64,000 nt of DNA from an uncultured Nitrospirota bacterium (GTDB lineage: Bacteria > Nitrospirota > Thermodesulfovibrionia > Thermodesulfovibrionales > JdFR-85): positions 276 to 64,275 of the forward strand of contig CAZEYP010000005.1 in NCBI GenBank assembly GCA_964515925.1. The letters are read 5' to 3'. The position numbers and the translations under genes were made by a program. Shown in pieces: positions 5,238 to 59,279 of the stretch. The notes beneath the pieces were generated by a model. That model was not told where the DNA came from and did no database searches. It saw only the letters and a program-made list of their open reading frames with translations. Positions within the stretch are counted from its first letter, which is position 1. The number at the start of each line of letters is the position of its first letter.

Positions 5238-5245
5238 GGATGTTT

Positions 5246-5280: not shown

Positions 5281-5294
5281 TTATAAATTTTACC

Positions 5295-6644: not shown

Positions 6645-6707
6645 GATTTCAGATTTGGGATTTAAGATTTAAGATTTCAGATTTATGATGTTAGATTTAT
6701 GATTGAG
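6645..6707. repeat. Heptamer tandem array GATTTNN x9
   Basis: Begins at the nucleotide after the regulator stop codon and ends 5 nt before the next ATG, in unbroken 7-nt register. Confidence 0.9.
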
Positions 6708-6712
6708 ATGAA

Positions 6713-7330: not shown

Positions 7331-8113
7331 TTGATACCCTATCCTGACATAAAACCCTATATAATCAAGATTGGTCCATTGCAGGTCAGATGGTATGGAC
7401 TGATGTACCTGCTTGGATTTACATCATCCTATCTGCTTGTCTGGTATCAGGTAAAAAAGAAAAGGCTTCCAATAGACAGACAGGTTATAGATGACCTCTA
7501 CTTTTACTTAATTCTCGGCCTTATCATTGGTGCAAGACTGGGTTATGTTGTTTTTTACAATCTACCCGAATACCTGAAAAACCCGCTGGAAGTCTTTGCC
7601 CTCTGGCATGGTGGCATGTCTTTTCACGGTGGGTTGATAGGCACAGTAGTGGCTGGCTACATCTTCTCAAGGAAACGGAATGTGGATTTCTGGCTCTTTG
7701 CTGACATGATAATAGCAACAGCTCCTATAGGGCTCGGTCTGGGAAGGATAGGAAACTTCATAAATGGTGAGCTTTTTGGAAGGCCCTCTACAGTGCCCTG
7801 GGCTATGGTCTTCCCTGAAGGTGGCCCCCTGCCAAGACATCCATCCCAGCTCTATGAGGCATCAGGTGAAGGTCTGCTGCTTTTTATTCTGCTGTGGTTC
7901 TTAAAAGACCGCATCAAGACCCCAGGATTTTTGACATCATACTTTCTAATATTTTACGGGGTTATAAGGTTTTTCCTCGAGTTCTTTCGCCAGCCTGACC
8001 CACAGCTTGGCTTTATAGTGTCTTTCTTAACGATGGGACAGATACTCTGTACGGGCATGATAGTGGCTGGTATCATACTTTATGTTATCAGGAGAAGAGT
8101 TGGCACGGTGTAA
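7331..8113 (+). CDS. lgt: Prolipoprotein diacylglyceryl transferase
   Basis: 260 aa, TTG start. Carries VRWYGLMYLLGF and GRIGNFINGELFGR motifs and multiple TM segments. Confidence 0.85.
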   Translation: MIPYPDIKPYIIKIGPLQVRWYGLMYLLGFTSSYLLVWYQVKKKRLPIDRQVIDDLYFYLILGLIIGARLGYVVFYNLPEYLKNPLEVFALWHGGMSFHGGLIGTVVAGYIFSRKRNVDFWLFADMIIATAPIGLGLGRIGNFINGELFGRPSTVPWAMVFPEGGPLPRHPSQLYEASGEGLLLFILLWFLKDRIKTPGFLTSYFLIFYGVIRFFLEFFRQPDPQLGFIVSFLTMGQILCTGMIVAGIILYVIRRRVGTV

Positions 8114-29965: not shown

Positions 29966-31009
29966 ATGCAGATAAACAAAGTACTTCAGGCCCTAAACCC
30001 CAAAATTATTGTTAAATCACCTGACAGCATCCTTGTAGTTAAAGATGGCGAAGTACTGCAGGCAGAGATAACAGAGCTGACAGAAAGAGGCACCTTAATC
30101 CTTAAAACCCCCAGGGGAGATTTTGAAGCCACCTCTACTGTGGAACTTAAAAAGGGAGGGCTTGTAAGATTAAGGGCACAGGTCAGCTCAAAAAGGCTAA
30201 TCCTTAGAGTTATTGATTACTGCTCACCTGAGGAGCTCTTTTTACAGAAAAAGCTCACCCAGATTCTAAGGAGCCTAACCCCACAGGAGGGGGTCGTTAA
30301 AAAGCTGGTTTCTCAGGCATCTGAGGAGCCATTAAGGGCCCTGATTCCTGAATTAAGAGACCTTTCATCAATCATAAATCAAATCGAAAGCCTTGTTGAA
30401 AACCCTAAGACCCTTAAGGAGGCATTAAGGCACTCGGGCATCTTTCTTGAGAGCAATCTAAAGCAATCAGTCTCTGAAAAAAATCTGAAAGACCTTATCA
30501 ATAAGGACCTGAAGGCAAAGCTACTTCGAATAACCAGACATATAGACTCATTAGCCCAGGAAAAGGGCCTTTCACCAGAACTAAGCTCTCTTAAAGAAAA
30601 CACAGAGAAACTACTACACACAATACAGTACTATCAGTTCAAAAACATTATGGATGATACCCTTCAACTTTTTGTACCCTTTGTATGGAAAGACCTCCGC
30701 AGGGGAAGCATTGAGTTTCGGAAGACAAAGGGCTCTCCTAAAAAATTACTCTATCATTGTATAATTAATCTCGAACTGAACTATCATGGAAAACTTATGG
30801 TAGTGGTCACACAGGAAAAAAGCGGCATACACATCGGCATGTTTACAGAAAAAGCCGACTTTGCTGAACTGTTAAGCACTAACAGCAAGATGCTTAAAGA
30901 AAGGCTTCTCAAAGCTGGCCTGAACCTTAGAAATCTTATTATAGAAAAACAAAAAGATATGGAATTCGTCGAAGATACCTTTTCACAGGGGCTAAACATC
31001 AGGGCATGA
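29966..31009 (+). CDS. FliK-like protein (hook-length-control C-terminal-domain-like)
   Basis: 347 aa. The C-terminal segment LQLFVPF...GSIEFRK...LMVVVTQEKSGIHIGMFTEK...LKERLLKAGLNL fits the Flg_hook pattern. Coupled to the FlhB-CTD-like gene by an ATGA overlap. Confidence 0.4.
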   Translation: MQINKVLQALNPKIIVKSPDSILVVKDGEVLQAEITELTERGTLILKTPRGDFEATSTVELKKGGLVRLRAQVSSKRLILRVIDYCSPEELFLQKKLTQILRSLTPQEGVVKKLVSQASEEPLRALIPELRDLSSIINQIESLVENPKTLKEALRHSGIFLESNLKQSVSEKNLKDLINKDLKAKLLRITRHIDSLAQEKGLSPELSSLKENTEKLLHTIQYYQFKNIMDDTLQLFVPFVWKDLRRGSIEFRKTKGSPKKLLYHCIINLELNYHGKLMVVVTQEKSGIHIGMFTEKADFAELLSTNSKMLKERLLKAGLNLRNLIIEKQKDMEFVEDTFSQGLNIRA

Positions 31010-33323: not shown

Positions 33324-35093
33324 TCACAATGCAGTAGCTTTACTGGTAGCTTTATCTTTTAAGAGGTGCCCTGAGTCATCAGACGAAAACTTATATAAAT
33401 TTTGTGAGCTTTTTTCTTCCACAACAATCCAATCGACCTGACTTTTAATGTTAGCAGATAGAGCGTTTAAGTTTTTAGAAATTTTGCTGAGTGATTTAGA
33501 ACTGTTCACCATTAATTCTGCTGCTTCTGAGACCTCTTTTATAGACTCTACAAGTCTCTCTGCAGATATCGATTGTCTTTCAGTGGCCTTTGAAATTAGC
33601 TGTATTAATTTTCTGGTCTTTTCAGTTGATTCTGTAATTGATTGCAAAGATTTGCCAATAATATCTATTGCCCTTAAGCCTTTTTTAACCTCCTCTTTGC
33701 TTTGCTTCGACTGCTGTAAAGAAGCATTTGTATCTTTAAGTATGTCATTGATTTTAGAAGTAATCTCCTTGGTAGCGTTAGCCGTTTTTTCAGCAAGTCT
33801 TCTTACCTCATCAGCAACAACAGCAAAACCTTTCCCCTGCTCTCCTGCTCTTGCAGCTTCTATGGCTGCATTAAGTGCAAGGAGATTTGTTTGCTCAGCG
33901 ATTTCGGCAATAAGCGTGGTAATTTTACTTATCTCCTTTGTGCTGGTGCCAAGACGCTCAATAGTTGAAGATGTATTATTTACCATATCAAGAATTTCTT
34001 TAATATTATTGATTGCATCACTGGATACCTCCATGCCATTCATTGCAATTTCAAATGCCTCTTCAGATGCCTGAACTGCCTCTGATGTTTTTAGTGTAAT
34101 CTCTTCTATACTGTTTGAAAGTTCAGATGTAGACGACACCATGTGTTCAACTTTTTGCATCTGTCTATCAGACATACCTGCAAGTTCCTCTGAGGTAAAT
34201 GATAGGGTAGCGGAACTTTCTGAAAGGGTTATAGCTTCTGTTTTTATCTGTTTTACCATGTCCTTAAGTCTGTTTTTCATTTGTTTAAAGGCTATAACCA
34301 TCTTGCCTATCTCGTCTGACCCCTTTACTTTTATCTCGCTTTCTACAAAGTATCCCCTTACCATCTTCTGGAAAGCCGAAGAGACATCTTCAATAGGGAC
34401 TATAATAATTTTTGACAATAGAATTGTTATAACAATAAGGGCAACTATGCCAGATGCACCGGCCACTCCGTAAAATAGCTGCATAAGGGTGGATTCATGC
34501 TCAAGGTCTGTAACCATACGGGGATAAGCATTTCTAAGAATGGTCAATGCAGTAGCGGTCTGTTCCATAATATCAAAGTAACTATTATCAAAATTTTCCA
34601 TCAAAACCCTTATCTTTTCTACTTTTCTGTCTTTTAAAGCTGGCACAATCTCGCTGAACATGATTTCCTTGTATTTATGCCATTTTTCTCTCGATCTGGA
34701 TAAAAAGCCCTTAATCGGCGCAATTGAACTCTTATTGTGACAGGCATAGCAGGTAACACCTTTTGAATTTATTTCTGAAAGGTATGTGTTTACCTTATCG
34801 AATAATGCGTCGGTTTTATTCACAATCCCTTTCAGGTTTTCTGTGATTTCTTCATCATAATTTAGATAACCTGAATATATGAAGGATCGTATCAAATTTA
34901 TGTTCATTCTTATGCGGGCAATATTGTCAATAGTATTCCTTTTTAAGTCTATGCCCGTATAGAGTGTGCCGCCAACTTTTACCTTTTTGAACAAGAGCTG
35001 TCCATAAATTATACCGAAAAAGATTCCAGCTATTATCATACCAAATACCAGAGCAAGTTTCTTCTTGATCGAAAGGTTATAAAACCAGTTCAT
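33324..35093 (-). CDS. Methyl-accepting chemotaxis protein with CXXCH in the periplasmic sensor domain
   Basis: 589 aa. Two TM segments flank a roughly 170-aa domain containing CYACH (residues 115-119), followed by HAMP and the conserved signalling hairpin ([32 protein letters not shown]). Confidence 0.9.
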
Positions 35094-38427: not shown

Positions 38428-39956
38428 TTGCTGAAAGCATAAATATCAAACCTGACAAAAGGGATTTCATAGACCTGATAAAATCAAAAGAACCGGTGGC
38501 AATACCACCTCTTTATGTAGAACTTCCCTACATGTCACCCTATCGTGTCTTCGAGGCCCTCAGGGGCCCTGGGGCCATCCTGTTTGAGAGTGTAAAGGGC
38601 TCAGAGAAAATAGCACGATACTCTTTCGTTACCTTTTCCCCTATTCTTGAATTCACTGTAAAAGACGGATTGATAGAGATTATCAGGGATGGAAAAAAAT
38701 CTGTATCAAACAGAAGACCCCTCACAAGGCTAAGGGAGTTGCTTCGAGCCTATCCTCAAAGTTCCCTGAAAGGGCTTCCCCCCTTTCAGGGAGGACTTGC
38801 AGGCTTTTTCAGTTATGATTTTGTTCATTACCTTGAAAGACTACCCTGTACTGCAAAGGATGATCTGGGGATACCTGATGCCCATTTCTACCTGTTCGAT
38901 AGGCTCTTTGCCTTTGACCATAAAGAGAAAAAATCTTACGCCATAGTCTGTCCTGGAGCAGCTATGATAAGTTTCGGATTTAATCTACCTTTTGAAACGC
39001 TCTGTCTTTCAGAAAGCGACTATTTAGAGATTTACGACAATGCCCTGCAGAGCCTGGAATATATGCTTAAAAGGACAAATGAAATCAGCTCTTCTGAGCC
39101 TCCCATAGAGATCCCGCATAAAAAACAAAATGTGGAGATTGTTCACGAGATGCAGATGAGGGAATATATGGATATGGTGGTAAGGGCAAAGGAGTACATC
39201 CGTGCAGGAGACATCTTTCAGGCAAATCTGTCGCAGAGGCTTCATGCAGAGATAGAGCCTGAAAAGCTGTGGTCGCTGTACACAATCCTTAGAAGCATAA
39301 ATCCTTCACCCTTTGCCTGCTATGCAGACTTTGGCAGTTATCAGATAGTGGGCTCATCGCCTGAACGACTTATACGGCTTCAGGGTAAAAAAGCCGAAAC
39401 CCGTCCCATAGCAGGAACAAGACCAAGAAGAGGCATAAAGCATCATGATGAAATAATGAGAGCAGAACTGCTTCTTAATGAAAAGGAAAGGGCAGAACAT
39501 ATCATGTTAATAGACCTGGAAAGAAATGACCTTGGCAAAGTCTGCACCTATGGCTCGGTAAAGGCAGATGAATTGATGATCACAGAAGACTACTCCCATG
39601 TAATTCATATTGTATCAAATGTGAAAGGAGAGTTAGCTGATGGAAGGGATTGCTTCAGTCTTGTGCGGGCTACCTTTCCAGGTGGCACCATAACAGGAGT
39701 TCCAAAGGTCAGATGTATGGAGATAATAGATGAACTCGAACCAACAGCAAGAGGTCCCTATACTGGCTCTCTTGGATATATCGGGTTTAATGGCAACATG
39801 GATTTAAACATTATTATTCGTACCTTTGTAATCAAGGACTCTATTGCCTATGTTCAGGCAGGTGCAGGAATCGTAGCAGATTCAGACCCTGAAAGAGAGT
39901 ATTTCGAGACACTGAGGAAGGCAGAAGCACTGCTTAGCACACTGGAAAGGCTCTAA
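38424..39956 (+). CDS. Anthranilate/aminodeoxychorismate synthase component I (TrpE/PabB family)
   Basis: 510 aa. Chorismate-binding domain with SPERL, IAGTRPR, PGGTITGVPK and GAGIVADSDPE. Confidence 0.85.
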   Translation: MIAESINIKPDKRDFIDLIKSKEPVAIPPLYVELPYMSPYRVFEALRGPGAILFESVKGSEKIARYSFVTFSPILEFTVKDGLIEIIRDGKKSVSNRRPLTRLRELLRAYPQSSLKGLPPFQGGLAGFFSYDFVHYLERLPCTAKDDLGIPDAHFYLFDRLFAFDHKEKKSYAIVCPGAAMISFGFNLPFETLCLSESDYLEIYDNALQSLEYMLKRTNEISSSEPPIEIPHKKQNVEIVHEMQMREYMDMVVRAKEYIRAGDIFQANLSQRLHAEIEPEKLWSLYTILRSINPSPFACYADFGSYQIVGSSPERLIRLQGKKAETRPIAGTRPRRGIKHHDEIMRAELLLNEKERAEHIMLIDLERNDLGKVCTYGSVKADELMITEDYSHVIHIVSNVKGELADGRDCFSLVRATFPGGTITGVPKVRCMEIIDELEPTARGPYTGSLGYIGFNGNMDLNIIIRTFVIKDSIAYVQAGAGIVADSDPEREYFETLRKAEALLSTLERL

Positions 39957-40861
39957 CCAAAAAGGAACCACTTCTTTTTGGTCTTTGCATTGTCAATGGA
40001 GCTCTTTATAGCCTCAAGAAGGCCGAGTATCTCGTCAGACTTCAAGGATTCCTTTTCCATGATATCCGAAAGACGGTCTATTGAGCTCCTGAGTCCGGCT
40101 ATGGCATCCAGTATCTCTCGAAGGCCATCAGAGCTCTCCCTGACAGACTCCTCTCTGGTAACGGGGGTTCTTTTGACTGGTTGAGTTTTAACCTCCGTTT
40201 TCTGTTTAGTTGCTGTTTTTTCCTCAGATTCTGTAATGCCACTGACAGAGCCCTCCTCAGCGCTTACATCTATCTTGTGTTTCCTGGAGACATGTTTAAG
40301 AAGAAGCTTTACTATTGCCTCAAAGGTCCCCCTTACACCCCTTCCCTCTATGGCTACAGATTCAAAAAAGGGCACACCCATCTTGTTTAGCTGGGCATTA
40401 AGCTCTGTAAGAGACATAATATTGTCAAGGTCTCGCTTATTATACTGCATCACAAGAGGGATGTCATCAGGATTGAGATTGTTAGCAATAAGGTTTTCCC
40501 GCATATTCTCAAGGCTTTCAAGGTTTTCTTCAAGCTTATCCCTCTGCGAGTCAGCTACGAACACAACCGCATCTGCTCCTTTAAGCACAAGCCTTCTTGT
40601 TGCATTATAACGCACCTGTCCAGGTACTGTATAAAGCTGAAACCTTATGGAAAAATCCTGTATCTTGCCAAGCTCAACAGGTAGGAAGTCGAAAAACAAT
40701 GTCCTGTCTGCCTCAGTGGAAAGAGAAAGAAGCTTACCCCTTCTCTTTGGGTCAAGCACAGAATGAAGGTATTGTAGGTTTGTGGTCTTACCACTCAGTC
40801 CTGGCCCATAATAAACAATCTTTAGTGTTATCTCCTTGGTAGCGTAATTAAAAAGTGCCAT
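39953..40861 (-). CDS. MglA-like Ras-superfamily GTPase with about 110-aa C-terminal extension
   Basis: 302 aa. The first roughly 190 aa carry KIVYYGPGLSGKTTNLQYLH, DRTLFFDFLP, LYTVPGQV and QYNKRDL. Then comes a low-complexity linker and a helical tail ending KKKWFLFG. Confidence 0.8.
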   Translation of the reverse strand: MALFNYATKEITLKIVYYGPGLSGKTTNLQYLHSVLDPKRRGKLLSLSTEADRTLFFDFLPVELGKIQDFSIRFQLYTVPGQVRYNATRRLVLKGADAVVFVADSQRDKLEENLESLENMRENLIANNLNPDDIPLVMQYNKRDLDNIMSLTELNAQLNKMGVPFFESVAIEGRGVRGTFEAIVKLLLKHVSRKHKIDVSAEEGSVSGITESEEKTATKQKTEVKTQPVKRTPVTREESVRESSDGLREILDAIAGLRSSIDRLSDIMEKESLKSDEILGLLEAIKSSIDNAKTKKKWFLFG

Positions 40862-40874
40862 GGCTACTCCTTTT

Positions 40875-42260
40875 TCAGATTATAACATATACACCGTTAC
40901 GGTTTTTATACTTTACCTTATACATGGCCTCATCTGCAAGATTAAGCAACTCCTCTTTAGATTTAGCTGTATCTGGATAAGAAGCCACCCCAAAGCTGGC
41001 TGTAACCCTGAGGTTGTAACCTTCACTTCTCAGGAATACTGCCTCCTCCACTGCCTTTCTGAGCCTTTCGGCAATCATGGCTGCATACTTTGAAGAGGTT
41101 TGAGGAAGCACTATCACAAACTCATCACCACCATATCGGGCAACGATATCAACAGAGCGTAGCTTGCTAAGCAGTAGCTGAGCAAGTTCTGTAAGAAGTT
41201 TACTCCCCACAAGATGACCGTGGGTATCGTTTACATCTTTGAAACGATCTATGTCCATAAAGATGAGCGAAACATGGGTATTGTATCGGTTTGCCCTCTC
41301 AAGTTCAATATCAAGGGTTCTGTTCAGATATCGTAGATTAAAAAGCTTGGTAAGATCATCCGTTATAACCAGCTCTTCTAACCTTAGCTGCAGCATCACC
41401 TTTTCCACTGCCACCGAGATGTGTCCTGATATATTATTTAGCAGCAAAAGGTCATCCTTGTTGAATTTCCCTTTTTTCTTGTTAATCAGTTCTATTACAG
41501 CCACTACAGAGTCCTTACTCATAACAGGAAACACAAGCATTGAGCTGGTCTTCATAACTCTGTGTAGCTTTATTTCTGCTTTCGCCCTTATATCATCATT
41601 TACATCCTCAACTATAAGAGGCCTTCTCTTTGAAGAAACCCAGCCAACTATACCATCACATGATGGAATTCTTATATCTCTTATTTCCCGTCTCCTTAGA
41701 GATGCCCCAAGCAGCACAAATTCTTTTGTCTCTAAATCTTTTATAAAAACAGCCCAGTTTTTGATATTAAAAACATCCTTAAGTCTCCTCATCAAGTCGT
41801 AAAACAGGGCTCCAATATCCTCATGCTTCATCATTAGATTGATGATCTTTCGCTGAAGGCCTATCAGGGTATGCAATTCACGATTTTCCTCTTTAACCCT
41901 GTTATACTCGTTTAGCACATCTCTTAAAATAATTATCTGGGAAATAACGGATCTTAATTCTTCAGTAGAAGCACTGTATATTATCTCTACATTTTCCCTC
42001 TCTCGCAAATAGGCAGGAACTTTCTCCTTCTGGTTTAACAATACAACTAAAATGGGCACTTTTTTGAAAATAGATTGTATCTTATTAAAAATCCCTTTAT
42101 TGATATCTCTTCTTTTGACTATTATCAGTTTAGGTAGGAGCTTTGAGCCTTCTATTTCCTTGAAGGTCAGGGCATTGAATCTTCCAGTCTTTAATTTCGA
42201 CAGGGCGTCTAAAAGTAGATCTTCCTCTTTTTTCCCGGTTATGTATAGAATCTCAGGCAT
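40875..42260 (-). CDS. Diguanylate cyclase (REC-like N-domain, coiled coil, GAF, GGDEF)
   Basis: 461 aa. RYGGDEF active site with an RSVD I-site five residues upstream. Its start overlaps the secA stop by 8 nt. Confidence 0.85.
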
Positions 42261-49247: not shown

Positions 49248-50146
49248 AAAGGGATTTTCTTAGACTCTGGGACCTTTCAGAGGATGAAATCCTCTCCCTT
49301 ATAAAAAGGGCAATTGACCTGAAAAGAGGTGTTGATGCAGGGAGATGTCCACTTATCGGAAAGAGCATCGGCCTTATATTTGAAAAACCATCCACCCGAA
49401 CAAGGGTCTCCTTTGAAGTTGGTATTTACCAGTTGGGTGCACAACCTGTTTACATGAGACCTGAAGAGATACAGCTTGGCAGAGGCGAAACAATATCTGA
49501 CACTGCAAAGGTTCTATCAAGATACCTTGATGGGATTATGATCAGAACCTTTGGTCATGAGAGGCTTGAGGAATTTGCCAGCGCATCCACTGTGCCGGTT
49601 ATCAACGGATTAAGCGACCTCCACCACCCCTGCCAGGCACTGGCTGATGTAATGACGATTTATGAGAAAAAGGGCAAACTAAAGGGTATCAAAGTTGCCT
49701 ATATCGGAGATGGAAACAATGTGGCAAACTCCCTTGTGGAGGCTGCTGGAAGGCTCGGATTTACCCTTACCCTGGCAACCCCTGAAGGTTATGAACCAGA
49801 TGCCGAGGTGCTTGAAACTGCTCGCACAGGAAAGGGAGATATAATTTTACTTAGCGACCCTAAGGAAGCAGCCGGCATGTCAGATGTTATGTATACTGAT
49901 GTCTGGGTTAGCATGGGAGAGGAATCAGAAGCTGAAAAGAAGAAAGGTAGATTCAAAAACTATCAGATAAACTCCTCACTGCTTTCCTGTGCTAAGCCTG
50001 ATGTGATAGTTATGCACTGTCTTCCTGCACACAGGGGAGAAGAGATTACCGATGAGGTAATCGACGGCCCAAACAGCGTGGTCTTCGACCAGGCTGAAAA
50101 CCGTCTCCATGCCCAGAAGGCACTAATGGAGATGCTCATTGCATAG
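49244..50146 (+). CDS. argF: Ornithine carbamoyltransferase
   Basis: 300 aa. STRTRVSFE, HPCQALAD and HCLPAHRGEE. Confidence 0.9.
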   Translation: MKRDFLRLWDLSEDEILSLIKRAIDLKRGVDAGRCPLIGKSIGLIFEKPSTRTRVSFEVGIYQLGAQPVYMRPEEIQLGRGETISDTAKVLSRYLDGIMIRTFGHERLEEFASASTVPVINGLSDLHHPCQALADVMTIYEKKGKLKGIKVAYIGDGNNVANSLVEAAGRLGFTLTLATPEGYEPDAEVLETARTGKGDIILLSDPKEAAGMSDVMYTDVWVSMGEESEAEKKKGRFKNYQINSSLLSCAKPDVIVMHCLPAHRGEEITDEVIDGPNSVVFDQAENRLHAQKALMEMLIA

Positions 50147-51785
50147 CCTTAACATTATTCCCCTTGGTGGGGTTGAAGAAATAGGGCTGAACTGTACAGT
50201 ATTTGATTGCAACCAAGACATCCTGGTGGTCGATGCAGGGTTAATGTTTCCCGAAGAAGACATGCCAGGGGTAGATATTGTTATTCCTGACTTTACCTAT
50301 CTTATTGAAAACCGTGACCGTATCAGGGCACTTATACTGACACATGGGCATGAAGATCATACTGGTGCAGTACCCTTTTTGCTGAAGGAACTTGGAAGGG
50401 AGATACCAGTATATGGAACTGCGCTTACCCTTGGTCTGCTACATGAAAAACTTATCGAACACCGGGTAAAGGCCAACCTTATAACAGTAAAGCCAAGAGA
50501 CAAAATCAGTATAGGTTGTTTTGAGGTAGAATTCATCAGGGTGACCCACAGCATTGTAGATGGTGTTGGACTTGCAATCGGTACACCTTACGGATATGTG
50601 GTGCATACAGGCGACTTCAAGTTAGACCCCACTCCTGTTGATGGAGAGCTCCTTGATTTCAACAGATTCTCCTATTACGGTGATATTGGAACGCTGGTGC
50701 TTCTTTCTGACAGCACAAACGCTGAGAAAGGCGGCTTTACCTTTTCTGAAAAAGAGGTTCGCAGGGCACTTGAAAATATATTTAGCAGGGCAACAGGAAG
50801 GATAATCATTGCTACCTTTGCCTCAAATATTCATCGAATCCAGCAGATTGTAGATGTAAGCATACAACATGGCAGAAAGCTCTCACTCTGCGGAAAAAGC
50901 ATCCTATCTAACGCAAAGATCGCCCTGGAACTCGGGTACCTGAAGATGCCTGAAGGCACATGGTTGAGGCTTCAGGATATAATGATGCTGCCTGATGAAC
51001 AGATTGTACTTATCACCACAGGCAGTCAGGGTGAACCAATGAGCGTTCTCTCAAGAATTGCCATGGATGAACACAAAGACATAAAGATAAAACCCAATGA
51101 TACGGTGGTACTTTCAGCCAAAATGATACCCGGTAATGAACGGGCAATCGGTAGGATTATTAATCATCTCTTCAGGAGAGGGGCAAATGTCTTATATGAA
51201 AAGGTTTCGGAAGTACATGTATCCGGACATGCTTCAAAGGAAGAACTGAAGTTAATGTTGAATCTGATAGGGCCTAAATACTTTGTGCCTGTTCATGGTG
51301 AATACCGACATCTTTCCTATCATGCCATGCTTGCAACCAAGCAGGGCATCCCGGAAGAAAATATCTTCATTCTCCAGAACGGAGATGTGCTGAGTATAAA
51401 CGACCAGGAAGCCTCAATCTCTGGTCATGTACATGCTGGTAGGGTGTTTATCGACGGCAAGGGTGGAATCGAGGATCTGGTCCTTCGCGACAGACGAAGG
51501 CTTGCACATGATGGCATAGTGGTTATCATTATTGGCATGGAGAAGCCGGGAAAGGTTATCATCGGACCTGACATAGTATCGAAGGGCTTTGTTATGGAAG
51601 AAAGTTCTCCAGATATTATCAACGAAATAAAAGAGGCCATATTGGAACAATTAAAAGTGCTGGACGAAGAGATACTTGAAGATAGTTCTGTATTGAAAGC
51701 TCGTCTCAGAAGCAGCGTAAAGAAATTTATACAGAAAAAGATGAACCGACGCCCCATGGTAGTGCCTATTATATTTGAAATTTAG
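50139..51785 (+). CDS. rnj: Ribonuclease J
   Basis: 548 aa. Metallo-beta-lactamase HGHEDH motif, beta-CASP layout, and an 8-nt overlap with argF. Confidence 0.9.
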   Translation: MHSLNIIPLGGVEEIGLNCTVFDCNQDILVVDAGLMFPEEDMPGVDIVIPDFTYLIENRDRIRALILTHGHEDHTGAVPFLLKELGREIPVYGTALTLGLLHEKLIEHRVKANLITVKPRDKISIGCFEVEFIRVTHSIVDGVGLAIGTPYGYVVHTGDFKLDPTPVDGELLDFNRFSYYGDIGTLVLLSDSTNAEKGGFTFSEKEVRRALENIFSRATGRIIIATFASNIHRIQQIVDVSIQHGRKLSLCGKSILSNAKIALELGYLKMPEGTWLRLQDIMMLPDEQIVLITTGSQGEPMSVLSRIAMDEHKDIKIKPNDTVVLSAKMIPGNERAIGRIINHLFRRGANVLYEKVSEVHVSGHASKEELKLMLNLIGPKYFVPVHGEYRHLSYHAMLATKQGIPEENIFILQNGDVLSINDQEASISGHVHAGRVFIDGKGGIEDLVLRDRRRLAHDGIVVIIIGMEKPGKVIIGPDIVSKGFVMEESSPDIINEIKEAILEQLKVLDEEILEDSSVLKARLRSSVKKFIQKKMNRRPMVVPIIFEI

Positions 51786-51816
51786 GCTCTATTATTTTAA
51801 AATTAATGTTATCTCT

Positions 51817-52836
51817 ATGATAAGCAACTCAAGAAAATATATATTATTGTTTGTTGCAATCTCGGCGACACTGTCCATACTCTCATGCGTTGAGATCAAA
51901 AAATCCCATCCTGTCTTAAAGATCAAAGAATACGAGCGACTCATTGCAGGCAGGCTTGATGCTGATTATGTTGGCACCCGGGCATGTCTTTCAGCCTGCC
52001 ATGCCCATGACAACATAAAGAGGGCCTTTGATGCAAGCACAATGGGGGCTCAGATGAAGGGTAACACCGGTATGCCCATGGTGGACTGTGAATCCTGCCA
52101 CGGCCCCGGAAGTCTTGCCATCAAGGGAATCACAAAGAAACTGGTTGAAGAAAACAGAAAAAGGGGGATAAAAACCACCTGTAATTACAAGACATTGATA
52201 GATATAAAAAATCTTCCAGCGCCGGCAAAGAGCCTTATCTGTCTAAAATGCCACACCGCCAATGCAACCTTCAACCTTCATGAATGGAACACTGGCATAC
52301 ACGCAATAAACGATGTCTCCTGCCCCGACTGTCATAAGATCCACAGTGGCCCTGACCTGAAGGTAAAACCGATAGATACTGCTGAGATGTGCTTTAAGTG
52401 TCATCAGGATATTCGTGCTTACTACAGCATGCCCAACCATCATCCCGTAGTTGAGAAAAAGATGTTCTGTACAGACTGTCACAACCCTCATGGCACCACA
52501 ACTGAACATCTACTGAAAAGAGAAACCGTGAGAAAGACCTGTACCCAGTGTCATGGAGAAAAACAGGGTCCCTATCTTTACGAACATGGTGACCTTACCG
52601 AGGAGTGCACAACCTGTCACCTACCCCACGGCTCACCAAATAATAATCTTCTTAAAGTCAGAGAGCCATTCCTGTGTCTTGAGTGTCATGAAACTCATAC
52701 TATAAACACCACTACAGGACAGGTCATATCAACCACAACCAAGCAGTACTTCTTCACACGTTGCACTGACTGCCACAGTTCAATACATGGCACAGACACT
52801 CCTTCTCCATCCGGAAACGGGAGGTTCATACAGTGA
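51817..52836 (+). CDS. Decahaem c-type cytochrome, MtrA/DmsE-like, with lipoprotein-type signal peptide
   Basis: Nine CXXCH motifs plus one CX3CH (CLSACH). C-terminal CTDCHSSIHG. Signal MISNSRKYILLFVAISATLSILSC. The ORF-track start at 51775 is a TTG inside the rnj end. Confidence 0.85.
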   Translation: MISNSRKYILLFVAISATLSILSCVEIKKSHPVLKIKEYERLIAGRLDADYVGTRACLSACHAHDNIKRAFDASTMGAQMKGNTGMPMVDCESCHGPGSLAIKGITKKLVEENRKRGIKTTCNYKTLIDIKNLPAPAKSLICLKCHTANATFNLHEWNTGIHAINDVSCPDCHKIHSGPDLKVKPIDTAEMCFKCHQDIRAYYSMPNHHPVVEKKMFCTDCHNPHGTTTEHLLKRETVRKTCTQCHGEKQGPYLYEHGDLTEECTTCHLPHGSPNNNLLKVREPFLCLECHETHTINTTTGQVISTTTKQYFFTRCTDCHSSIHGTDTPSPSGNGRFIQ

Positions 52837-54770
52837 AAAAGACAGTTAGGGTAATAGGCACACTGCTGGTCTTCCTTTCCTTTGGATTTACTGCAACTGC
52901 AGAGGAACTTAAGCTCCCTACCTATCCCCCTACTTATCGTCTAAGTGTTGGAACCAGTCTAAAACACCTTGCTGGAAACCCAAGGGTATCAGAGTATGAG
53001 GATACCACTGATAATATTTACCTCTTTACAGACATAAGGTCATACCCACTCCCTCACAGGTTTCATCTTTTTGGTTATTTCTCTGGTGAGCATGACTATT
53101 TTGTTGACACTGGATACGCCTACAGAGACATCCTTCTGTATAGACTTGTATCAGTCGGGTTTGTACATCATACTGACCACTATCCATACGATTTAAAAGC
53201 CCCCTCACCAGTGCAACAGTACGAAGACAGAGATCCCGATGACGATTATATGCAGGATATTAGAAAAACAAAACTGAAATTAAGACTGAAATGGCCCAAT
53301 TACCCGCTTCATTTATTCTTCCGATACTCCGATTACCACCATAAGGGCAACCTTCAGCAGCGTTTTCTGATAGGATACTTTGGTAATATGAATAAAGTTT
53401 CCCAGTCAAGGAGTCTGACTAAAGATACCAGTGAGTTCAAGATTGGCACAAATGGTCATCTTGGCCCTGTAGAGCTTGAATACTTCCATATTGAAAGACA
53501 TTTTGATTCATCAAGAGATACCATTTTACAGGATGATTATCCAGAAATAAATAGTCCTCCAATTATTTATAGACCTGCAGACATTTATCCACATAATATA
53601 TACCCTGACATTAAGGGCCATGGCGATTCGTTGAAGATTCACACCTCCTATACAGGACAGATTGTTGCATCCTACTCTGTAATGGGAGATGTCTTAAGAA
53701 ACCTCTACAGTGGAGTAAAAAGAAAGACACTTCGCTCCTCAGCAACCCTTCAGTACATGCCATCTCATATCATTGCAATGTTCTTAAGGATGAATTATCT
53801 CAACATAGAAGAATCAAACACCTCATATACAGTGCTGAGGGGGCTTCAGAATCAACTCACCTACGATGTAAGAAAATCCATAGACATTGAAAAAAAGACG
53901 GTTCATCTCATAAGCCGTATCAGACCGATAAAAGACCTCACCCTTATACCATCCTATAGTATAGAAATCAAAAAGAGAACCGATACAGAGGGATGGACAC
54001 TTTCAGAAGGAGATACAACCACCCAGAGCTACAAACTGAAGGTGCTCTCAAAACCTGTCAGGAATTTAAGCATTAGAGCTGCTTACAGTCATAGCCATAC
54101 CAAAAACCCACTCTACAACTTTATACCTGAAGACAGGGACCGAATCAAACTCTATTTTTCCTATTTACCCTTGCCTCCTGTACAATTAATCGCATCCTAT
54201 ACATTTTCACATTCCAGAAGAGGTAATGTTAGTTATTATGATGACCTTACAGGGTCCTTTTATGAAGGAAAGGACAAAAAGGGCACCCATCACTTCCTTG
54301 TTATTACTGCATCCACAACTCCTGTTTATAATCTAAGCATCACCGCTTCTGTGGGTTACTACCGTGTAAAGGAGACCTCCTGTCTTGCTTTTAAACAACT
54401 GAAGGGAGATGGCACCTTTACCTTTGTACAGCCCTTTATGGAGCATTCTGTCCCCTATAAAGACAGGGCAATTACATATATGTTAAACATAACGAGACGG
54501 TTCAGCAATAGATGGAATGTTTCAGTAGATATCTCAGCAACCTATTCTAAAGGAAGTTTCCATACATCCACCGATACCCTTTCGGGTATTGATGGGTTTT
54601 CAAAGATCAACAATCGCGACAGCACTATTAAACTCAGTTCCAGTTATAAACTACTTAAAGATACCTCTATTGGTCTTGAGTTACTTTACGAGTCTTACAG
54701 TGACAGGGTAAACCCTGATCTTAATGGAAGGTTATACAGAGGGCTGATACGGTTAACCAAAAACCTTTAA
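52833..54770 (+). CDS. Large outer-membrane beta-barrel protein, MtrB/PioB-like by context
   Basis: 645 aa. Signal peptide MKKTVRVIGTLLVFLSFGFTATA, no TM helices, Tyr/Ser/Thr-rich alternating strands. A GTGA overlap links it to the cytochrome stop. Confidence 0.6.
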   Translation: MKKTVRVIGTLLVFLSFGFTATAEELKLPTYPPTYRLSVGTSLKHLAGNPRVSEYEDTTDNIYLFTDIRSYPLPHRFHLFGYFSGEHDYFVDTGYAYRDILLYRLVSVGFVHHTDHYPYDLKAPSPVQQYEDRDPDDDYMQDIRKTKLKLRLKWPNYPLHLFFRYSDYHHKGNLQQRFLIGYFGNMNKVSQSRSLTKDTSEFKIGTNGHLGPVELEYFHIERHFDSSRDTILQDDYPEINSPPIIYRPADIYPHNIYPDIKGHGDSLKIHTSYTGQIVASYSVMGDVLRNLYSGVKRKTLRSSATLQYMPSHIIAMFLRMNYLNIEESNTSYTVLRGLQNQLTYDVRKSIDIEKKTVHLISRIRPIKDLTLIPSYSIEIKKRTDTEGWTLSEGDTTTQSYKLKVLSKPVRNLSIRAAYSHSHTKNPLYNFIPEDRDRIKLYFSYLPLPPVQLIASYTFSHSRRGNVSYYDDLTGSFYEGKDKKGTHHFLVITASTTPVYNLSITASVGYYRVKETSCLAFKQLKGDGTFTFVQPFMEHSVPYKDRAITYMLNITRRFSNRWNVSVDISATYSKGSFHTSTDTLSGIDGFSKINNRDSTIKLSSSYKLLKDTSIGLELLYESYSDRVNPDLNGRLYRGLIRLTKNL

Positions 54771-54784: not shown

Positions 54785-55720
54785 TTGAAGACAATAAAAG
54801 CCACATTGGTATTGTTTGTTTTTCTGGGATTTATACTTTGGGCTCCTTTAAAAAATTACGCTCAGAAAACCATACAGGTAGGAGTTGTCTTCTCAACCGA
54901 TATACCTTATTATAAGGAGCTACATAAAAGATTCATAAAAATCTTAAATAATCAATTTCCTGATATTCATGTCAATGTAATCGTTCAAACTCCAAACCCG
55001 AATCCCCTTGCATGGAGCAATGCCATAAGAAAGCTACTGGTTTATGATTCCCAGATCCTGATTGTTTATGGCTCTGGAGCACTGAAGGCTGCTATTCATG
55101 AGGATGTTGATGTACCAATAATCTTTGCAGGTGCTTTCAAAACGAAACTTAATAACATTAGAGGCAAAAAACTTAGCGGTGTATTCTACAAGATACATCT
55201 AAGCAGTGTTATCAGATACATAAAAAAGATAAGGCAAACCCGACACCTTGATATTCTTTTTTCCGAAATAGAGCCATCCTCTATACAGGAGGCTAATATG
55301 TTAAAGTCACTCTGTAAGGACTTTAAAATAAACTGTTCCCTTCATGGTGTTAGTGATTACGATGAACTGTCTGATTATGTAGATAATGTCAGGGCTGATA
55401 TGGTCTTTGTGGCTGAAAGTGCACTTATTGCAAGGTTTCTTCCAGAATTTCACGAAGAGTTTAATAAAAAACTCATTCCCCTTGTAACGACTACCCCAGG
55501 TCTTGAACGAATAACTGTCTTTTCCCTTAAACCCGACATTCGATACGAAGCCAAAAGTCTTGCAGAAATCTTTGTCAATGTTATAAAGAAAAGAAAAGGT
55601 TCAAATAAAATACAAACTATAAGCAAAACCACTTTAACCTTCAATATGGGACTTGCCAAAATACTGGAGACAATGATTCCAGCAGAGCTTACATCCTACG
55701 CAGATGAGGTAATAAAATGA
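54785..55720 (+). CDS. Periplasmic binding protein (uncharacterised ABC-type substrate-binding fold), no partner permease
   Basis: 311 aa, TTG start after an AAGGGGG SD, with a signal peptide. KTIQVGVVFS... resembles the COG2984-type family. Confidence 0.5.
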   Translation: MKTIKATLVLFVFLGFILWAPLKNYAQKTIQVGVVFSTDIPYYKELHKRFIKILNNQFPDIHVNVIVQTPNPNPLAWSNAIRKLLVYDSQILIVYGSGALKAAIHEDVDVPIIFAGAFKTKLNNIRGKKLSGVFYKIHLSSVIRYIKKIRQTRHLDILFSEIEPSSIQEANMLKSLCKDFKINCSLHGVSDYDELSDYVDNVRADMVFVAESALIARFLPEFHEEFNKKLIPLVTTTPGLERITVFSLKPDIRYEAKSLAEIFVNVIKKRKGSNKIQTISKTTLTFNMGLAKILETMIPAELTSYADEVIK

Positions 55721-56610
55721 AAAAGCTGATGATGACAGTAGTGATTTCAGCAATGCTTATACAGGCAGTCTATGCTGAGACGAAGCAGCCTCTTCTAATC
55801 GGTTTAATTCCAGAGCAAAACATATTCAAACAATTTGAACGATATCTTCCTCTTGCAAGTTATCTGGATAAAAAAACAGGGATAAAGGTTAAATTTACAA
55901 TCCTGAGCAAATACGGTGATATAATTGATAGATTTACACAGAGGGGACTTGCAGGGGCATTTTTTGGTGATCTTACAGGTGCAATCGCAATCAAGAAGCT
56001 TGCAGTGGAGCCTGCTGTCACCCCGATAAATGTTTACGGTTCAAGCACATCCTATGGATTTATTATTGTCAGGAAAGACTCTGGAATATCCGGAGTAGAG
56101 GATATGCGGGGGAAAATAATGGCCTTTGTAGATAAGGCAAGCGTTGCCGGTTATTTATTCCCTATTGTTTATTTAAAGAAGCAGGGCGTTAAGGATTATA
56201 AAACCTTTTTTAGTGAATACTACTTTACTGGCGGATTTGATGCCTCGCTTTATGATGTTGTAGATGGAAGGGCAGATATAGGTTGTGTAAAAAATACCGT
56301 GCTTAACGAGATAATCCGTAAAGATCCATCGGTGATTAAAGAGATTAAGATAATCGCCCAGTCTCCTTCCATGCCAACTAATGTGCTGTGTCTGAGCAAA
56401 ACTCTTTCGCCTGAAATCAAGTCAAAGATTATCAATGCCCTGCTCGATATGGAAAACGACCCCTTTGGGGAGAATATCTTGAAAAAGATGAAGTTTAAGA
56501 GGTTTATCAGAGCCTATGAAGACAACTTTTTACCTGTTTATCGTCTTCTTTATGAAATTCACGAAAAACCAGAAACCTATGACTATAAAATCAATGATAA
56601 ACTTCAATGA
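55717..56610 (+). CDS. PhnD-like (phosphonate-type) periplasmic binding protein, no partner permease
   Basis: 297 aa with a signal peptide. Contains PLLIGLIPEQNIFKQFERYLPLASYL... and ADIGCVKN. An ATGA overlap links it to the previous gene. Confidence 0.6.
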   Translation: MKKLMMTVVISAMLIQAVYAETKQPLLIGLIPEQNIFKQFERYLPLASYLDKKTGIKVKFTILSKYGDIIDRFTQRGLAGAFFGDLTGAIAIKKLAVEPAVTPINVYGSSTSYGFIIVRKDSGISGVEDMRGKIMAFVDKASVAGYLFPIVYLKKQGVKDYKTFFSEYYFTGGFDASLYDVVDGRADIGCVKNTVLNEIIRKDPSVIKEIKIIAQSPSMPTNVLCLSKTLSPEIKSKIINALLDMENDPFGENILKKMKFKRFIRAYEDNFLPVYRLLYEIHEKPETYDYKINDKLQ

Positions 56611-56643: not shown

Positions 56644-58623
56644 ATGCTAAAAAGAATCGTAAAATATCTATTTATCCTGTTTCTCCTTTTCAGTATAGGA
56701 GGGGGAGTCGCTATATACTCTCTTTCAAGGGTAACCAGACAGCTGGAAACCCTGATAAAGCTCCATCGTGTTGAGATAATCAGACAGAATCTAATTATTA
56801 ACCTCAAGACCGTACAGAGCAATCTCTTCACCCTTGGCACAACATTTGGTCCTGAGCTTGATGTTATTGTAAGGAATGTTATATCTCTTAATGCTGCAAT
56901 AAACAGGTGTTCAGGCTGTCACCATTCCGAAGAGATTGCCTCCAAGTTGCGCAACCTGAAAAATCTCATAGAAGACTATAAAGGGGCAATCAGTGTTTTC
57001 ATTACCACCACTGCCAACCCGGCAAGAGTGAAACGATTGAAACAGGTTGCAGTTGATATTGGAGACATATTGCTTTCTAAGGCCGAAGAAATGACCTATA
57101 TAGCTCACAAAAGACTTCAACAGAGGACACAGAAGGCACTTAAAGAGGTAGGAATAATCAGGTATATACTCTTTTTTAGTCTTCTTGGCACTATGCTTAT
57201 GGGCTTTGTCGTTGCAAAGGGGCTTACCAGTGAGATAGTTACCCCGGTGAAGAAGCTTTCTGAAGCTGCAAGGAAACTAAAGTCAGGTGTGCTTGGTTAT
57301 ACAGTAAAAATAGACGACCGGACAGAACTTGGCGAGCTTGCCAATGCCTTCAACGACATGAGTCTTTCCATAAAAAAGGGACACGAGCAGACACTGAACT
57401 ATATGCAAAAACTGAAAGGCCTCCATAACCTTGCCCTGTCACTTCACATGGTATCAAAGGAAACAGATATTTATAATGAATTGATACAGGGACTGTCGGA
57501 AATAATAACAGCTAATGAATATGTGCTATACCTGAAGTCAGACAGGAAGTATGAAGTGGTGGCTTCTCTTGAGAACACCGACAATGTGCTTACCTTTACT
57601 GGCAGTTTTTCAGAAGAGATAATTCGTGAACTGTTTGAAGAAAGCGGAAAAAAGGCAATTGTTTCATACAGATCTGACCCTGAGTCACAAACCCTGCTTC
57701 CTGATGAGCTAAAACATTACGAAAACCTCTGTATAATGTGGATAACGGAAAGAAATCAGCTCATCGGTTTCTTACTCATAGCTGACATCCAGAAGGAAGA
57801 AATAACCGAGGATGATATCAGACTGCTTAGCATTATAGTGAATAACTTTTCTGTTGCCATGGAAAACATCCGTCTTTATAAAAACCTTATGGTTCAGATG
57901 CAAAAATTAAAAGAAGCCCAGGAACAGCTTGTTCAGGCAGCTAAACTTGCGGCCATTGGTGAGCTTGCTGCCAACATCGCCCATGAAATAAACAATCCTC
58001 TTACCACAATACTTGGCTATACAGAGCTGTTGAAAGAAGAGGATGATATGGAGGGGATTAAAAATGACCTTAAAATAATCGAAAGTGAATCTCTGAGAGC
58101 GAGAGAGATTGTCCAGCAGCTTCTTGAATTCTCAAGGCGTCGTCCTCTTAAGATCGAACCGGTTAACATTGATGAATTGCTGGACGACATAAAAAAACTT
58201 GTACTTCCTAATATGAGAGAAAAGCAGATAAAGCTTATTGAAGAAAAATCACACATCCCTGTTATTGAAGGCGACAGGAATCAATTAAAACAGGTCTTCC
58301 TTAATCTGATTAACAATGCGCTGCAGGCAATGCAAAAAGAAGGCACCTTAAAAATAGTAACAGGAGAAAAAGAGGGTTTTGTATTTGTAGAGATAACCGA
58401 CAATGGTACAGGAATACCTGACGAAATACTACCAAGGATATTTGAACCTTTCTTTACCACCAAGAAAGACAGGGGAACCGGATTAGGACTACCAATTAGT
58501 TACAGGATTGTAGAAAACCATGGTGGCAGAATCGAGGTTAAAAGCAAGGTAAATACAGGAACAACCTTCAGGGTATATCTACCAACAAGGGTTCCAAGTG
58601 AGAAAAAAACAGTAGGAGTCTAA
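56644..58623 (+). CDS. Membrane sensor histidine kinase (periplasmic CXXCH domain-HAMP-GAF-HisKA-HATPase)
   Basis: 659 aa. TM1 YLFILFLLFSIGGGVAIYSL, CSGCH at residues 89-93, TM2 YILFFSLLGTMLMGFVVA, H-box AHEINNPLTTI, G-boxes DNGTGI and GTGLGL. Confidence 0.85.
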   Translation: MLKRIVKYLFILFLLFSIGGGVAIYSLSRVTRQLETLIKLHRVEIIRQNLIINLKTVQSNLFTLGTTFGPELDVIVRNVISLNAAINRCSGCHHSEEIASKLRNLKNLIEDYKGAISVFITTTANPARVKRLKQVAVDIGDILLSKAEEMTYIAHKRLQQRTQKALKEVGIIRYILFFSLLGTMLMGFVVAKGLTSEIVTPVKKLSEAARKLKSGVLGYTVKIDDRTELGELANAFNDMSLSIKKGHEQTLNYMQKLKGLHNLALSLHMVSKETDIYNELIQGLSEIITANEYVLYLKSDRKYEVVASLENTDNVLTFTGSFSEEIIRELFEESGKKAIVSYRSDPESQTLLPDELKHYENLCIMWITERNQLIGFLLIADIQKEEITEDDIRLLSIIVNNFSVAMENIRLYKNLMVQMQKLKEAQEQLVQAAKLAAIGELAANIAHEINNPLTTILGYTELLKEEDDMEGIKNDLKIIESESLRAREIVQQLLEFSRRRPLKIEPVNIDELLDDIKKLVLPNMREKQIKLIEEKSHIPVIEGDRNQLKQVFLNLINNALQAMQKEGTLKIVTGEKEGFVFVEITDNGTGIPDEILPRIFEPFFTTKKDRGTGLGLPISYRIVENHGGRIEVKSKVNTGTTFRVYLPTRVPSEKKTVGV

Positions 58624-59279
58624 ACCTTCTTTACAAATATCTCCTTTGCAATCTCAGGGTCAAGGGCAACGGTAGTTTCCTCAACCTGTACAACCACAGA
58701 AGGCCATTTCTGAAGTAGCTTTACAACAGAGCCAGCATTTATTCCAATTGAATTCAACCTGTTAAGCCTTGAAGGGTCTGAAGGAACTATGTATACAATT
58801 CTACCCTCCTGTCCTACCTCAAAATCATTCAAACGCATCACAAGAGGTTTTATCTCAACACTGTATTTTTTACAGCATTCTCCCCTTGGAATAGGTTTTC
58901 CATGAGGACAGGTTGGAGGATGTCCAAGAAAGGTACATACACTGTCTGTTAACTCTTCACTTAAAATATGCTCCATCTTGCAGGCATCTTCGTGTATGAA
59001 CTCCTCCTTCATCTCAAAAACATCGGCGAAAAGCCTCTCAGCAAGTCTATGTCTTCTGACAATGCCCCTTGCAATCTCCTCCCCCTCTGCAGTAAGCCTT
59101 ATATCATCACCTTCAACCTTCACAAGTCCTCTTTTTCTGAGCCTTGCGACAACAGCCTCTATCTCTTCATCGTCAGAGTAACCATAAAGACGTTTTAAGC
59201 CGCTTTTGCCTTCTTCCTCTAAAAGCCAGATAAGCTCCAGCGCTTCCTCAAGTCTCTCCTCATCAAAGTTTTTGTGCAT
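58620..59279 (-). CDS. DtxR/MntR-family metal-dependent regulator with C-terminal FeoA-like domain
   Basis: 219 aa. wHTH N-terminus, RRHRLAERLF dimerisation helix, Cys/His-rich metal site (CTFLGHPPTCPHG), and an SH3-like tail. Confidence 0.8.
   Translation of the reverse strand: MHKNFDEERLEEALELIWLLEEEGKSGLKRLYGYSDDEEIEAVVARLRKRGLVKVEGDDIRLTAEGEEIARGIVRRHRLAERLFADVFEMKEEFIHEDACKMEHILSEELTDSVCTFLGHPPTCPHGKPIPRGECCKKYSVEIKPLVMRLNDFEVGQEGRIVYIVPSDPSRLNRLNSIGINAGSVVKLLQKWPSVVVQVEETTVALDPEIAKEIFVKKV

Follow-up and report, generated by a model that had tools for sequence, protein, structure and literature searches.

A probable MtrAB-type porin–cytochrome gene pair from a Nitrospirota bacterium and its conserved linkage to putative periplasmic sensing genes

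MtrAB-type conduits are the best understood electron route across the Gram-negative outer membrane, and their genes serve as metagenome markers of iron and manganese cycling and of electroactivity. To our knowledge, the sensing and regulation of extracellular electron transfer (EET) are poorly understood outside Shewanella and Geobacter. The subject of this analysis is a pair of overlapping genes in an uncultured Nitrospirota bacterium (contig CAZEYP010000005.1), one encoding a decahaem c-type cytochrome and the other an outer-membrane β-barrel. Both lie in a stretch of 64 kb, referred to below as the window, and negative statements about neighbouring genes refer to this window. An original prediction, made from the DNA letters and the list of open reading frames (ORFs), had regarded the pair as a two-component porin–cytochrome conduit embedded in a string of housekeeping genes. 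The pair and its relatives are described here, together with the signalling genes that accompany them.

The cytochrome gene (51817..52836, + strand) starts with ATG and encodes a product of 339 aa, as given by the ORF list and by direct reading of the sequence. Ten haem-binding motifs are spread over this product. The first one, CLSACH at residue 57, is of the CX3CH type and is followed by nine CXXCH motifs at residues 91, 142, 169, 192, 218, 242, 264, 287 and 316, the last standing in the context CTDCHSSIHG. The protein contains 23 histidines, 10 of them within the motifs, and the 13 others are sufficient for bis-His ligation of all ten haems. Chance or composition does not account for the motifs, because no other ORF of at least 60 aa in the six frames of the window has more than one CXXCH. 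Regarding family membership, the TIGR03508 model of the NCBI, which covers DmsE-family decahaem cytochromes, is matched at 246.6 bits (cut-off 192.2) over profile positions 1–257 of 258, and the model of GSU2203 (NF041028) at 233.1 bits, under its cut-off of 325. The sole strong match among PDB sequences is chain A of 6R2Q (MtrA), aligned with residues 53–330 at an E-value of 1.6e-40. The two proteins share 36% identity over 258 aligned positions (6r2q_A) and their ten motifs pair one to one, the CX3CH of the window protein being a one-residue insertion in motif 1 relative to MtrA. Entry 6R2Q is the structure of MtrCAB (PMC7198977), and the molecule name entered by the depositors in the file is wrong. 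Judged by these matches, the protein is a genuine decahaem cytochrome of the MtrA/DmsE family. Its N-terminus, MISNSRKYILLFVAISATLSILSC, matches the PROSITE lipobox pattern with LSILSC, of which the Cys is residue 24, and the cytochrome is thus a predicted lipoprotein with a lipid anchor at Cys24. The gene lgt for prolipoprotein diacylglyceryl transferase is encoded within the window (7331–8113, + strand), which fits lipoprotein maturation in the host.

The barrel gene (52833..54770, + strand) starts with GTG and overlaps the cytochrome stop by 4 nt (GTGA; junction sequence ...ACAGTGAAAAAG). Its product of 645 aa resembles a signal peptide at the N-terminus, contains a single Cys (residue 517) and is devoid of CXXCH. 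The Pfam family MtrB_PioB (PF11854) is matched above threshold, at 40.7 bits for a cut-off of 23, but only by residues 491–625 (profile positions 474–597 of 635), while residues 11–466 match the model of the GSU2204-family CXXCH-containing (seleno)proteins (NF041027) at 79.4 bits without reaching the cut-off of 350. An AlphaFold (AF2) model of the single chain, built on an alignment of 38 relatives, has a mean pLDDT of 88.2 and consists of 69% strand and 5% helix; exactly 26 of the strands are 9 residues long or longer. When this model is compared with the PDB by Foldseek, the top match is MtrB (6r2q_B; E 2.3e-17, TM 0.72/0.71) and all remaining matches are TonB-dependent receptors with TM values ≤0.45. 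It is therefore the modelled structure, rather than the sequence, that assigns a 26-strand MtrB-like fold to the barrel. Several statements of the original prediction are borne out by these results, namely the 339-aa product with nine CXXCH, one CX3CH and a terminal CHSSIHG, the lipobox-like LSILSC, the GTGA overlap with a 645-aa ORF and the nature of the latter as a large, secreted, all-β outer-membrane barrel. The proposed resemblance to an MtrAB-type conduit likewise stands, since TIGR03508 is passed and the barrel model is closest to MtrB.

The start of the cytochrome gene lies 31 nt after the end of rnj (50139–51785; TIGR00649, 613.6 bits for a cut-off of 400). The immediate flanks have housekeeping functions (argD, argF and rnj upstream; recJ, secF and secD downstream), and secA, leuS, mutS, ppdK, lgt and tatC are found elsewhere in the window. 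The G+C content is 0.428 at 52–54 kb, to be compared with 0.40–0.46 across the remaining window, so that the composition of the pair is typical of its surroundings and a genomic island is ruled out. The spacing to rnj, the housekeeping context and the lack of an island signature had all been predicted, as had the lack of certain partner genes nearby: no MtrC-/OmcA-like or CymA/NapC-like multihaem ORF is present among the six-frame ORFs of the window. An Rfam scan of the whole window returned one tRNA; no regulatory RNA was detected around the pair, and in an exact-sequence cluster look-up no source names these proteins. Just 5′ of the cytochrome start, the sequence TTGAAA-17-TAAAAT (51775–51803) is a possible promoter only; over 49.0–59.6 kb, the scan gave 28 promoter-like sites for 23.6 expected and 7 terminator-like sites for 8.0 expected, and is uninformative.

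The view of the pair as a self-contained two-component unit had to be abandoned, as the two genes head a conserved string that also encodes two binding proteins and a putative haem-c sensor kinase. Beginning 14 nt after the barrel gene, the third gene (54785..55720, + strand) encodes a divergent, PF04392-type periplasmic solute-binding-like protein of 311 aa with a signal peptide (Pfam ABC_sub_bind, 28.3 bits versus 25.9), the orthologues of which at related loci score 89–104 bits. It overlaps by 4 nt a gene (55717..56610, + strand) for a PhnD-like periplasmic binding protein of 297 aa (Pfam Phosphonate-bd, 180.9 bits; TIGR01098, 160 bits), whose nearest solved relatives are PtxB, PhnD, ArrX (E 7e-19) and AioX (E 1e-15). 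After a further 33 nt comes the gene of a sensor histidine kinase of 659 aa (56644..58623, + strand), in which a transmembrane (TM) segment, a periplasmic domain and a second TM segment precede HAMP, GAF, HisKA and HATPase domains. The last gene, convergent with that of the kinase (58620..59279, − strand; the stops overlap over the 4 nt 58620–58623), encodes a DtxR/MntR-family metal-dependent regulator with a FeoA-like C-terminal domain (Pfam Fe_dep_repr_C and FeoA). This regulator scores 101 bits on the DtxR and 89 bits on the MntR model of NCBIfam, both under cut-off. It is the best-conserved gene of the neighbourhood, with 73–93% identity among Nitrospirota loci (including L003, L005, L007 and L012–L019), and stays beside the kinase in Nitrospirota loci with or without the conduit; it was not detected in Desulfobulbales loci. 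For 5 kb to both sides of the string there is no gene for an ABC permease or ATPase and no feoB.

The periplasmic stretch of the kinase, about 140 aa between TM segments at residues ~5–28 and 171–190, contains CSGCHH at residues 89–94. A CXXCHH motif occurs at exactly residue 89 in 30 of 30 loci of the kinase type, with varying inner residues (CSGCH, CTGCH, CGSCH, CTDCH and others), and residues H41, H94, Y112 and M150 are invariant in the sensor domain at these 30 loci. The cytoplasmic part differs from locus to locus (GAF-kinase, plain kinase or PAS-kinase-receiver), which makes the sensor module the conserved unit of the kinase. No Pfam family matched this domain. An AlphaFold run based on 3 sequences gave a low-confidence model (pLDDT 56.9), of which the secondary structure alone was used, with no fold search on the model; in it the domain forms four helices, and the motif occupies the turn that joins helix 2 to helix 3. 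A search of an index of 5.8 billion proteins with the domain (221 aa) yielded only 2 matches. Altogether, the protein is considered a putative haem-c sensor kinase. The same 64 kb encode a second putative haem-c sensor, a methyl-accepting chemotaxis protein (MCP) of 589 aa (33324–35093, − strand; HAMP and MCPsignal domains) with CYACH at residue 115 in a periplasmic loop between two TM segments. Comparison of the two sensor domains gave an E-value of 3.7, and their homology is unsupported.

Relatives of the pair were sought by a genome scan with one genome per GTDB species, and 80 of the 124 loci returned were retained. These come without exception from uncultured or metagenome-derived genomes, mostly of Nitrospirota (Thermodesulfovibrio, Candidatus Sulfobium and other lineages) and of Desulfobulbales, including Desulfurivibrio, and many of the carriers originate from hydrothermal, subseafloor or groundwater sites. 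Only 44 relatives were found in the 5.8-billion-protein search, whereas among 1.84 billion cluster representatives 858 were matched by a profile search at E ≤1e-3, 254 of them at E ≤1e-30. The pairing is strict: at all 80 loci the barrel gene is immediately preceded by a cytochrome gene wherever the contig extends far enough, the exception being L068, in which the contig begins inside the barrel. The lipoprotein character predicted for the window cytochrome is shared: of 76 full-length cytochromes, essentially all have a Cys behind the signal segment and 66 conform to the strict lipobox. A conserved linker (LK.S.PI.P.KEYE.MI.GR.DA.YVGT) follows the lipobox Cys in this set, and at least 72 of the 76 proteins have CX3CH as haem motif 1. 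The pair represents a distinct branch in metagenome-assembled genomes of Nitrospirota and Desulfobulbales, distinguished by these two cytochrome traits and by a haem-less barrel.

On the barrel side, the distant profile matches are GSU2204-type barrels with a single CXXCH near residue 200 (P0154–P0183), which indicates that some MtrB-like barrels carry their own haem-binding motif. This CXXCH, situated in a loop or strand, aligns with residues 182–190 of the window barrel, where the sequence is YFGNMNKVS (family pattern YFG..K.S), and three histidines (H112, H160 and H254) are invariant in both types. R76, R151 and N207–E214 are further invariant residues of the barrel. According to these alignments, the window family is the haem-less counterpart, as a sister group, of the GSU2204-type CXXCH barrels that are paired with OmcK in Geobacter. 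Two relatives, P0088 (996 aa) and P0082 (784 aa), have long N-terminal extensions before the barrel; that of P0088 comprises ~370 residues with two repeats of ~90 residues.

The association of the pair with signalling genes was evaluated on the 70 of the 80 loci that retain at least 1.1 kb after the barrel gene and are therefore informative. The gene of the PF04392 protein comes next in 66 of them and is absent in 4. Among these 66, the PhnD-like protein and the kinase follow in 30 (8 of which also have the DtxR-type gene) and an MCP follows in 27; this amounts to a signalling cassette after the conduit in 57 of the 70 informative loci. The five-gene string is kept at barrel identities of 78%, 49% and 40% although the flanks differ, as exemplified by L007, where rnj is missing upstream and ftsW/PBP genes replace recJ downstream. 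In loci with ~30% barrel identity, a chemoreceptor of the sCache_3_2-HAMP type comes after the pair and the PF04392 protein instead. Sampling from the sensor side, by scanning metagenome contigs with an alignment of the kinase sensor domain, again retrieved many loci with cytochrome, barrel, PF04392 protein, PhnD-like protein and kinase in this order. A natural variant adds to this picture. Loci L107 and L018, from two metagenome-derived genomes, share 92% DNA identity on both sides of a 4.85-kb segment that L107 lacks between rnj and the kinase gene (L018:6804–11654; junction at L107:6843–6873). Within this segment lie the genes of the cytochrome, barrel and PF04392 protein and all but the final ~100 nt of the PhnD-like gene; these ~100 nt remain at the junction and identify the state of L107 as a deletion. 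Through their joint loss in one event, the cytochrome, barrel and both binding-protein genes behave as a block.

Taken together, these data make it fairly probable that the pair is an MtrAB-type porin–cytochrome conduit whose production or deployment is linked with a sensing unit in the periplasm. The decahaem cytochrome would be tethered by its lipidated N-terminus at the periplasmic face or rim of the outer membrane and would sit inside the 26-strand MtrB-like barrel, the chain of ten haems carrying electrons across the membrane. With no MtrC encoded nearby, the outermost haem may meet the external substrate without an intermediary, a mode of contact that has been proposed for MtoAB and PioAB; candidates for this substrate are minerals of Fe(III) or Mn(IV), Fe(II), sulfur species, electrodes and partner cells, and electrons might flow in either direction. 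The two binding proteins, which have no transporter, are most likely periplasmic co-sensors of the kinase. ArrX and AioX are PhnD-type binding proteins whose partner kinases control respiratory arsenic enzymes, and their place among the nearest solved relatives of the PhnD-like protein provides a precedent for orphan binding proteins beside a kinase and a redox system. By analogy with ArrX/ArrS and AioX/AioS, the making or use of the conduit would respond to a chemical or redox cue in the periplasm. What the data show directly is to which family the cytochrome belongs, how the barrel is folded, that the two genes are strictly paired and that their linkage with the signalling genes is conserved; complex formation, regulation by the sensors, the substrate and the direction of flow are inferred.

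Several observations weigh against this interpretation. The tie of the barrel to MtrB/PioB in sequence is marginal. The TIGR03509 model scores 21.4 bits for a cut-off of 240.05 and is not passed, and a profile of 38 barrel relatives found no MtrB among PDB sequences; of the family models by which the original prediction was to be checked, those for the cytochrome (TIGR03508) and for Pfam MtrB_PioB thus support it, and TIGR03509 does not. Within the 64 kb there is no gene for a quinol dehydrogenase, a periplasmic shuttle or a surface cytochrome, which leaves the electron route to the inner membrane unaccounted for. No response regulator gene is adjacent to that of the kinase, and control of transcription is inapplicable to the loci of the MCP type. 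Lastly, the sensing genes also occur without the conduit. In at least 10 metagenome loci with 4–7 kb of upstream sequence, the PF04392 protein, the PhnD-like protein and the kinase are encoded with no conduit or multihaem ORF upstream; examples are L093, L105, L106, L108, L110, L115 and L154 (~5200–9600 each), which lie in varied housekeeping contexts, with or without the convergent DtxR-type gene. Likewise, the kinase and the regulator are intact in the L107 deletion. The existence of the cassette without the conduit and the survival of the kinase after the deletion imply that the sensors are not dedicated to the conduit alone. The coupling is asymmetric: the conduit subfamily is hardly ever found without a signalling cassette, and the cassette can stand without the conduit.

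This asymmetry (57 of 70 loci with a cassette and 66 of 70 with the PF04392 protein, the cassette also occurring alone) is what would be expected of a sensor accessory, and leads to a different assignment of roles, in which the conduit is not mainly respiratory and serves as the input arm of the sensing unit. As such an extracellular antenna, it would equilibrate a periplasmic redox pool with the redox state of extracellular minerals, electrodes or partner cells, and the haem-c kinase assisted by the binding proteins, or the chemoreceptor in sister lineages, would convert this input into gene regulation or redox taxis; the idea as a whole is judged unlikely although it has several points in its favour. 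Kinase and MCP outputs are attached to the same conduit and binding protein, and an MCP cannot regulate transcription; the kinase sensor domain has an invariant CXXCHH, H41 and M150; and periplasmic sensor domains with haem c are an established feature of chemoreceptors in Geobacter (PMC3460858, PMC8396549). However, the string encodes no soluble redox carrier to bridge the outer-membrane cytochrome and the inner-membrane sensor, redox motifs are absent from both binding proteins, no CXXCH occurs in the MCPs at loci of the MCP type, and ordinary substrate-responsive regulation, as in ArrXSR and AioXSR, explains the adjacency of sensor genes equally well. If true, such a role would make the pair a dedicated device for sensing minerals, electrodes or partner cells instead of a respiratory outlet. 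The regulator at the end of the string could direct attention to metals instead: the conduit would reduce extracellular Fe(III) or Mn(IV), the binding proteins would take the released metal or chelate for import, and the whole would be under DtxR/MntR-type control. Operons with DmsE/MtoA/MtrA-type and MtrB/PioB genes and with ABC substrate- and ATP-binding genes are indeed found in Geobacterales, where uptake has been proposed (PMC11492766), and the DtxR/MntR-family regulator with its FeoA-like domain adjoins the string. Nevertheless, reductive metal acquisition appears very improbable here, given the lack of permease, ATPase and FeoB genes noted above. Besides, the regulator follows the kinase and not the conduit, persisting where the latter is absent or deleted and escaping detection in Desulfobulbales loci, PF04392- and PhnD-type proteins are not known as binders of metal cations, and the solved structures nearest to the PhnD-like protein are those of oxyanion-binding proteins.

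An oxyanion-type soluble cue, suggested by the PhnD-like sensor partner, would suit another possibility, namely that the pair feeds an extracellular molybdoenzyme or terminal reductase encoded elsewhere, as Shewanella DmsEF does for DmsAB. The best curated family of the cytochrome, TIGR03508, is named for DmsE, but this model cannot tell DmsE from MtrA, MtoA or PioA, and DmsAB-like genes are missing both from the 64-kb window and from the gene tables of the related loci examined; a DmsEF-type module is accordingly regarded as highly improbable. Finally, the two proteins might be unrelated neighbours that form no complex, an NrfB-like periplasmic carrier next to an ordinary transport barrel (TonB receptor, LptD or porin). 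This would agree with weak matches of the cytochrome to the NrfB and NrfH models (about 35–38 bits) and of the barrel to Porin_4 (15.7 bits), and with the sole match of the barrel profile among PDB sequences, a siderophore receptor at an E-value of 0.023, which is regarded as uninformative, the fold search being decisive. The NrfB and NrfH scores are far under their cut-offs whereas TIGR03508 is passed. An NrfB identity of the cytochrome and a general-porin identity of the barrel are rejected on family scores and fold search. An identity as TonB-dependent receptor or LptD, which, like a grouping of the cytochrome with NrfB, had been named as a possible refutation from the outset, is also rejected, with no Pfam match and no plug domain or TonB-receptor family detected, and TM values ≤0.45 for TonB receptors against 0.72 for MtrB. 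As the genes moreover overlap and are paired at every related locus, an accidental neighbourhood is scarcely credible.

Comparison with known systems situates the proposed conduit more precisely. Gammaproteobacterial MtrB has an N-terminal CXXC, a motif that the window barrel, with one Cys, does not possess. The pair shares with Shewanella MtrCAB the ten-haem cytochrome family, the modelled 26-strand fold and the order of cytochrome then barrel, but it lacks an MtrC gene within 64 kb and is thus not a three-component system. It differs from MtrCAB, too, by its predicted lipoprotein cytochrome with CX3CH as motif 1, by a barrel barely recognizable by sequence and by its link with sensor genes. 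MtoAB of Sideroxydans and PioAB of Rhodopseudomonas likewise combine a decahaem cytochrome and a barrel of the same curated families without a surface cytochrome. Here, however, genes for CymA/MtoC, MtoD or PioC (a high-potential iron–sulfur protein, HiPIP) are not adjacent, and the system belongs to another lineage, with a lipoprotein cytochrome and sensor genes, the direction of electron flow not being assignable from sequence. The Geobacter pair GSU2203/GSU2204, of which GSU2203 is OmcK (PMC4070692), includes the closest curated relative of barrel residues 11–466, and for the cytochrome its model comes near that of DmsE (233.1 and 246.6 bits). Both window scores are nonetheless under the NCBI cut-offs (325 and 350), and the window barrel lacks the CXXCH; the GSU2204 type figures among known selenoproteins, some of its members containing selenocysteine (PMC13188914). 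An MtrAB-like lineage of Desulfuromonadia has been described only recently (PMC12133095, PMC11492766), and operons with an ABC-type binding protein occur there as well (PMC11492766).

The signalling part of the string also has its counterparts. In the ArrX/ArrS and AioX/AioS systems, the gene of a PhnD-like protein similarly adjoins those of a membrane kinase and of a redox system of the respiratory type, and transporter genes are missing; the window string differs by the PF04392 protein as a second binding protein, by the haem-c motif in the kinase and by the lack of an adjacent response regulator. Geobacter GSU0582 and GSU0935 are other transmembrane transducers with a single CXXCH in the periplasmic sensor domain, in organisms rich in EET genes. 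Their sensor domains are PAS/Cache-like, in contrast to that of the window kinase, which is predicted, with low confidence, to be all-helical and belongs to no Pfam family.

As a conduit, the pair is unsurprising. The original prediction that such a system had not been described in its lineage was only partly right, since surveys have reported pcc-like systems, or mtrAB without mtrC, in Thermodesulfovibrio and Desulfobulbales-type genomes (PMC6137239, PMC8042283) and homologues are already annotated automatically as members of the MtrB/PioB family. In the searchable literature, which leaves subscription journals mostly outside, there is no description of a subfamily with a lipoprotein CX3CH MtrA and a haem-less GSU2204-like barrel, nor of its near-obligate adjacency to a binding-protein and haem-kinase cassette or to an MCP. 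The conduit type itself is known, and what may be new are the traits of the subfamily and its sensor linkage. Lying near the detection limit of the standard barrel models and having no surface cytochrome, this branch would be missed by surveys that demand mtrCAB or strict MtrB scores. Its linkage to orphan binding proteins and to a haem kinase or chemoreceptor gives a handle on when cells deploy conduits or where they swim, and makes the pair a useful lead on the sensing and regulation of EET. In addition, natural variants from which only the four-gene block has been deleted allow a ready comparison within environmental data.

Other signalling genes are found in the window at a distance from the pair. 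A cluster at 1796–6644 encodes an NMT1-like binding protein (− strand), a PAS-GAF histidine kinase (+ strand) and a sigma-54-dependent response regulator (+ strand). At 39953–42260 (− strand), adjoining secA, a gene for a Ras/Arf-like small GTPase lies directly 3′ of a GAF-GGDEF diguanylate cyclase gene. Finally, a FliK-like hook-length protein is encoded at 29966–31009 (+ strand) and, together with the MCP, indicates a motile organism.

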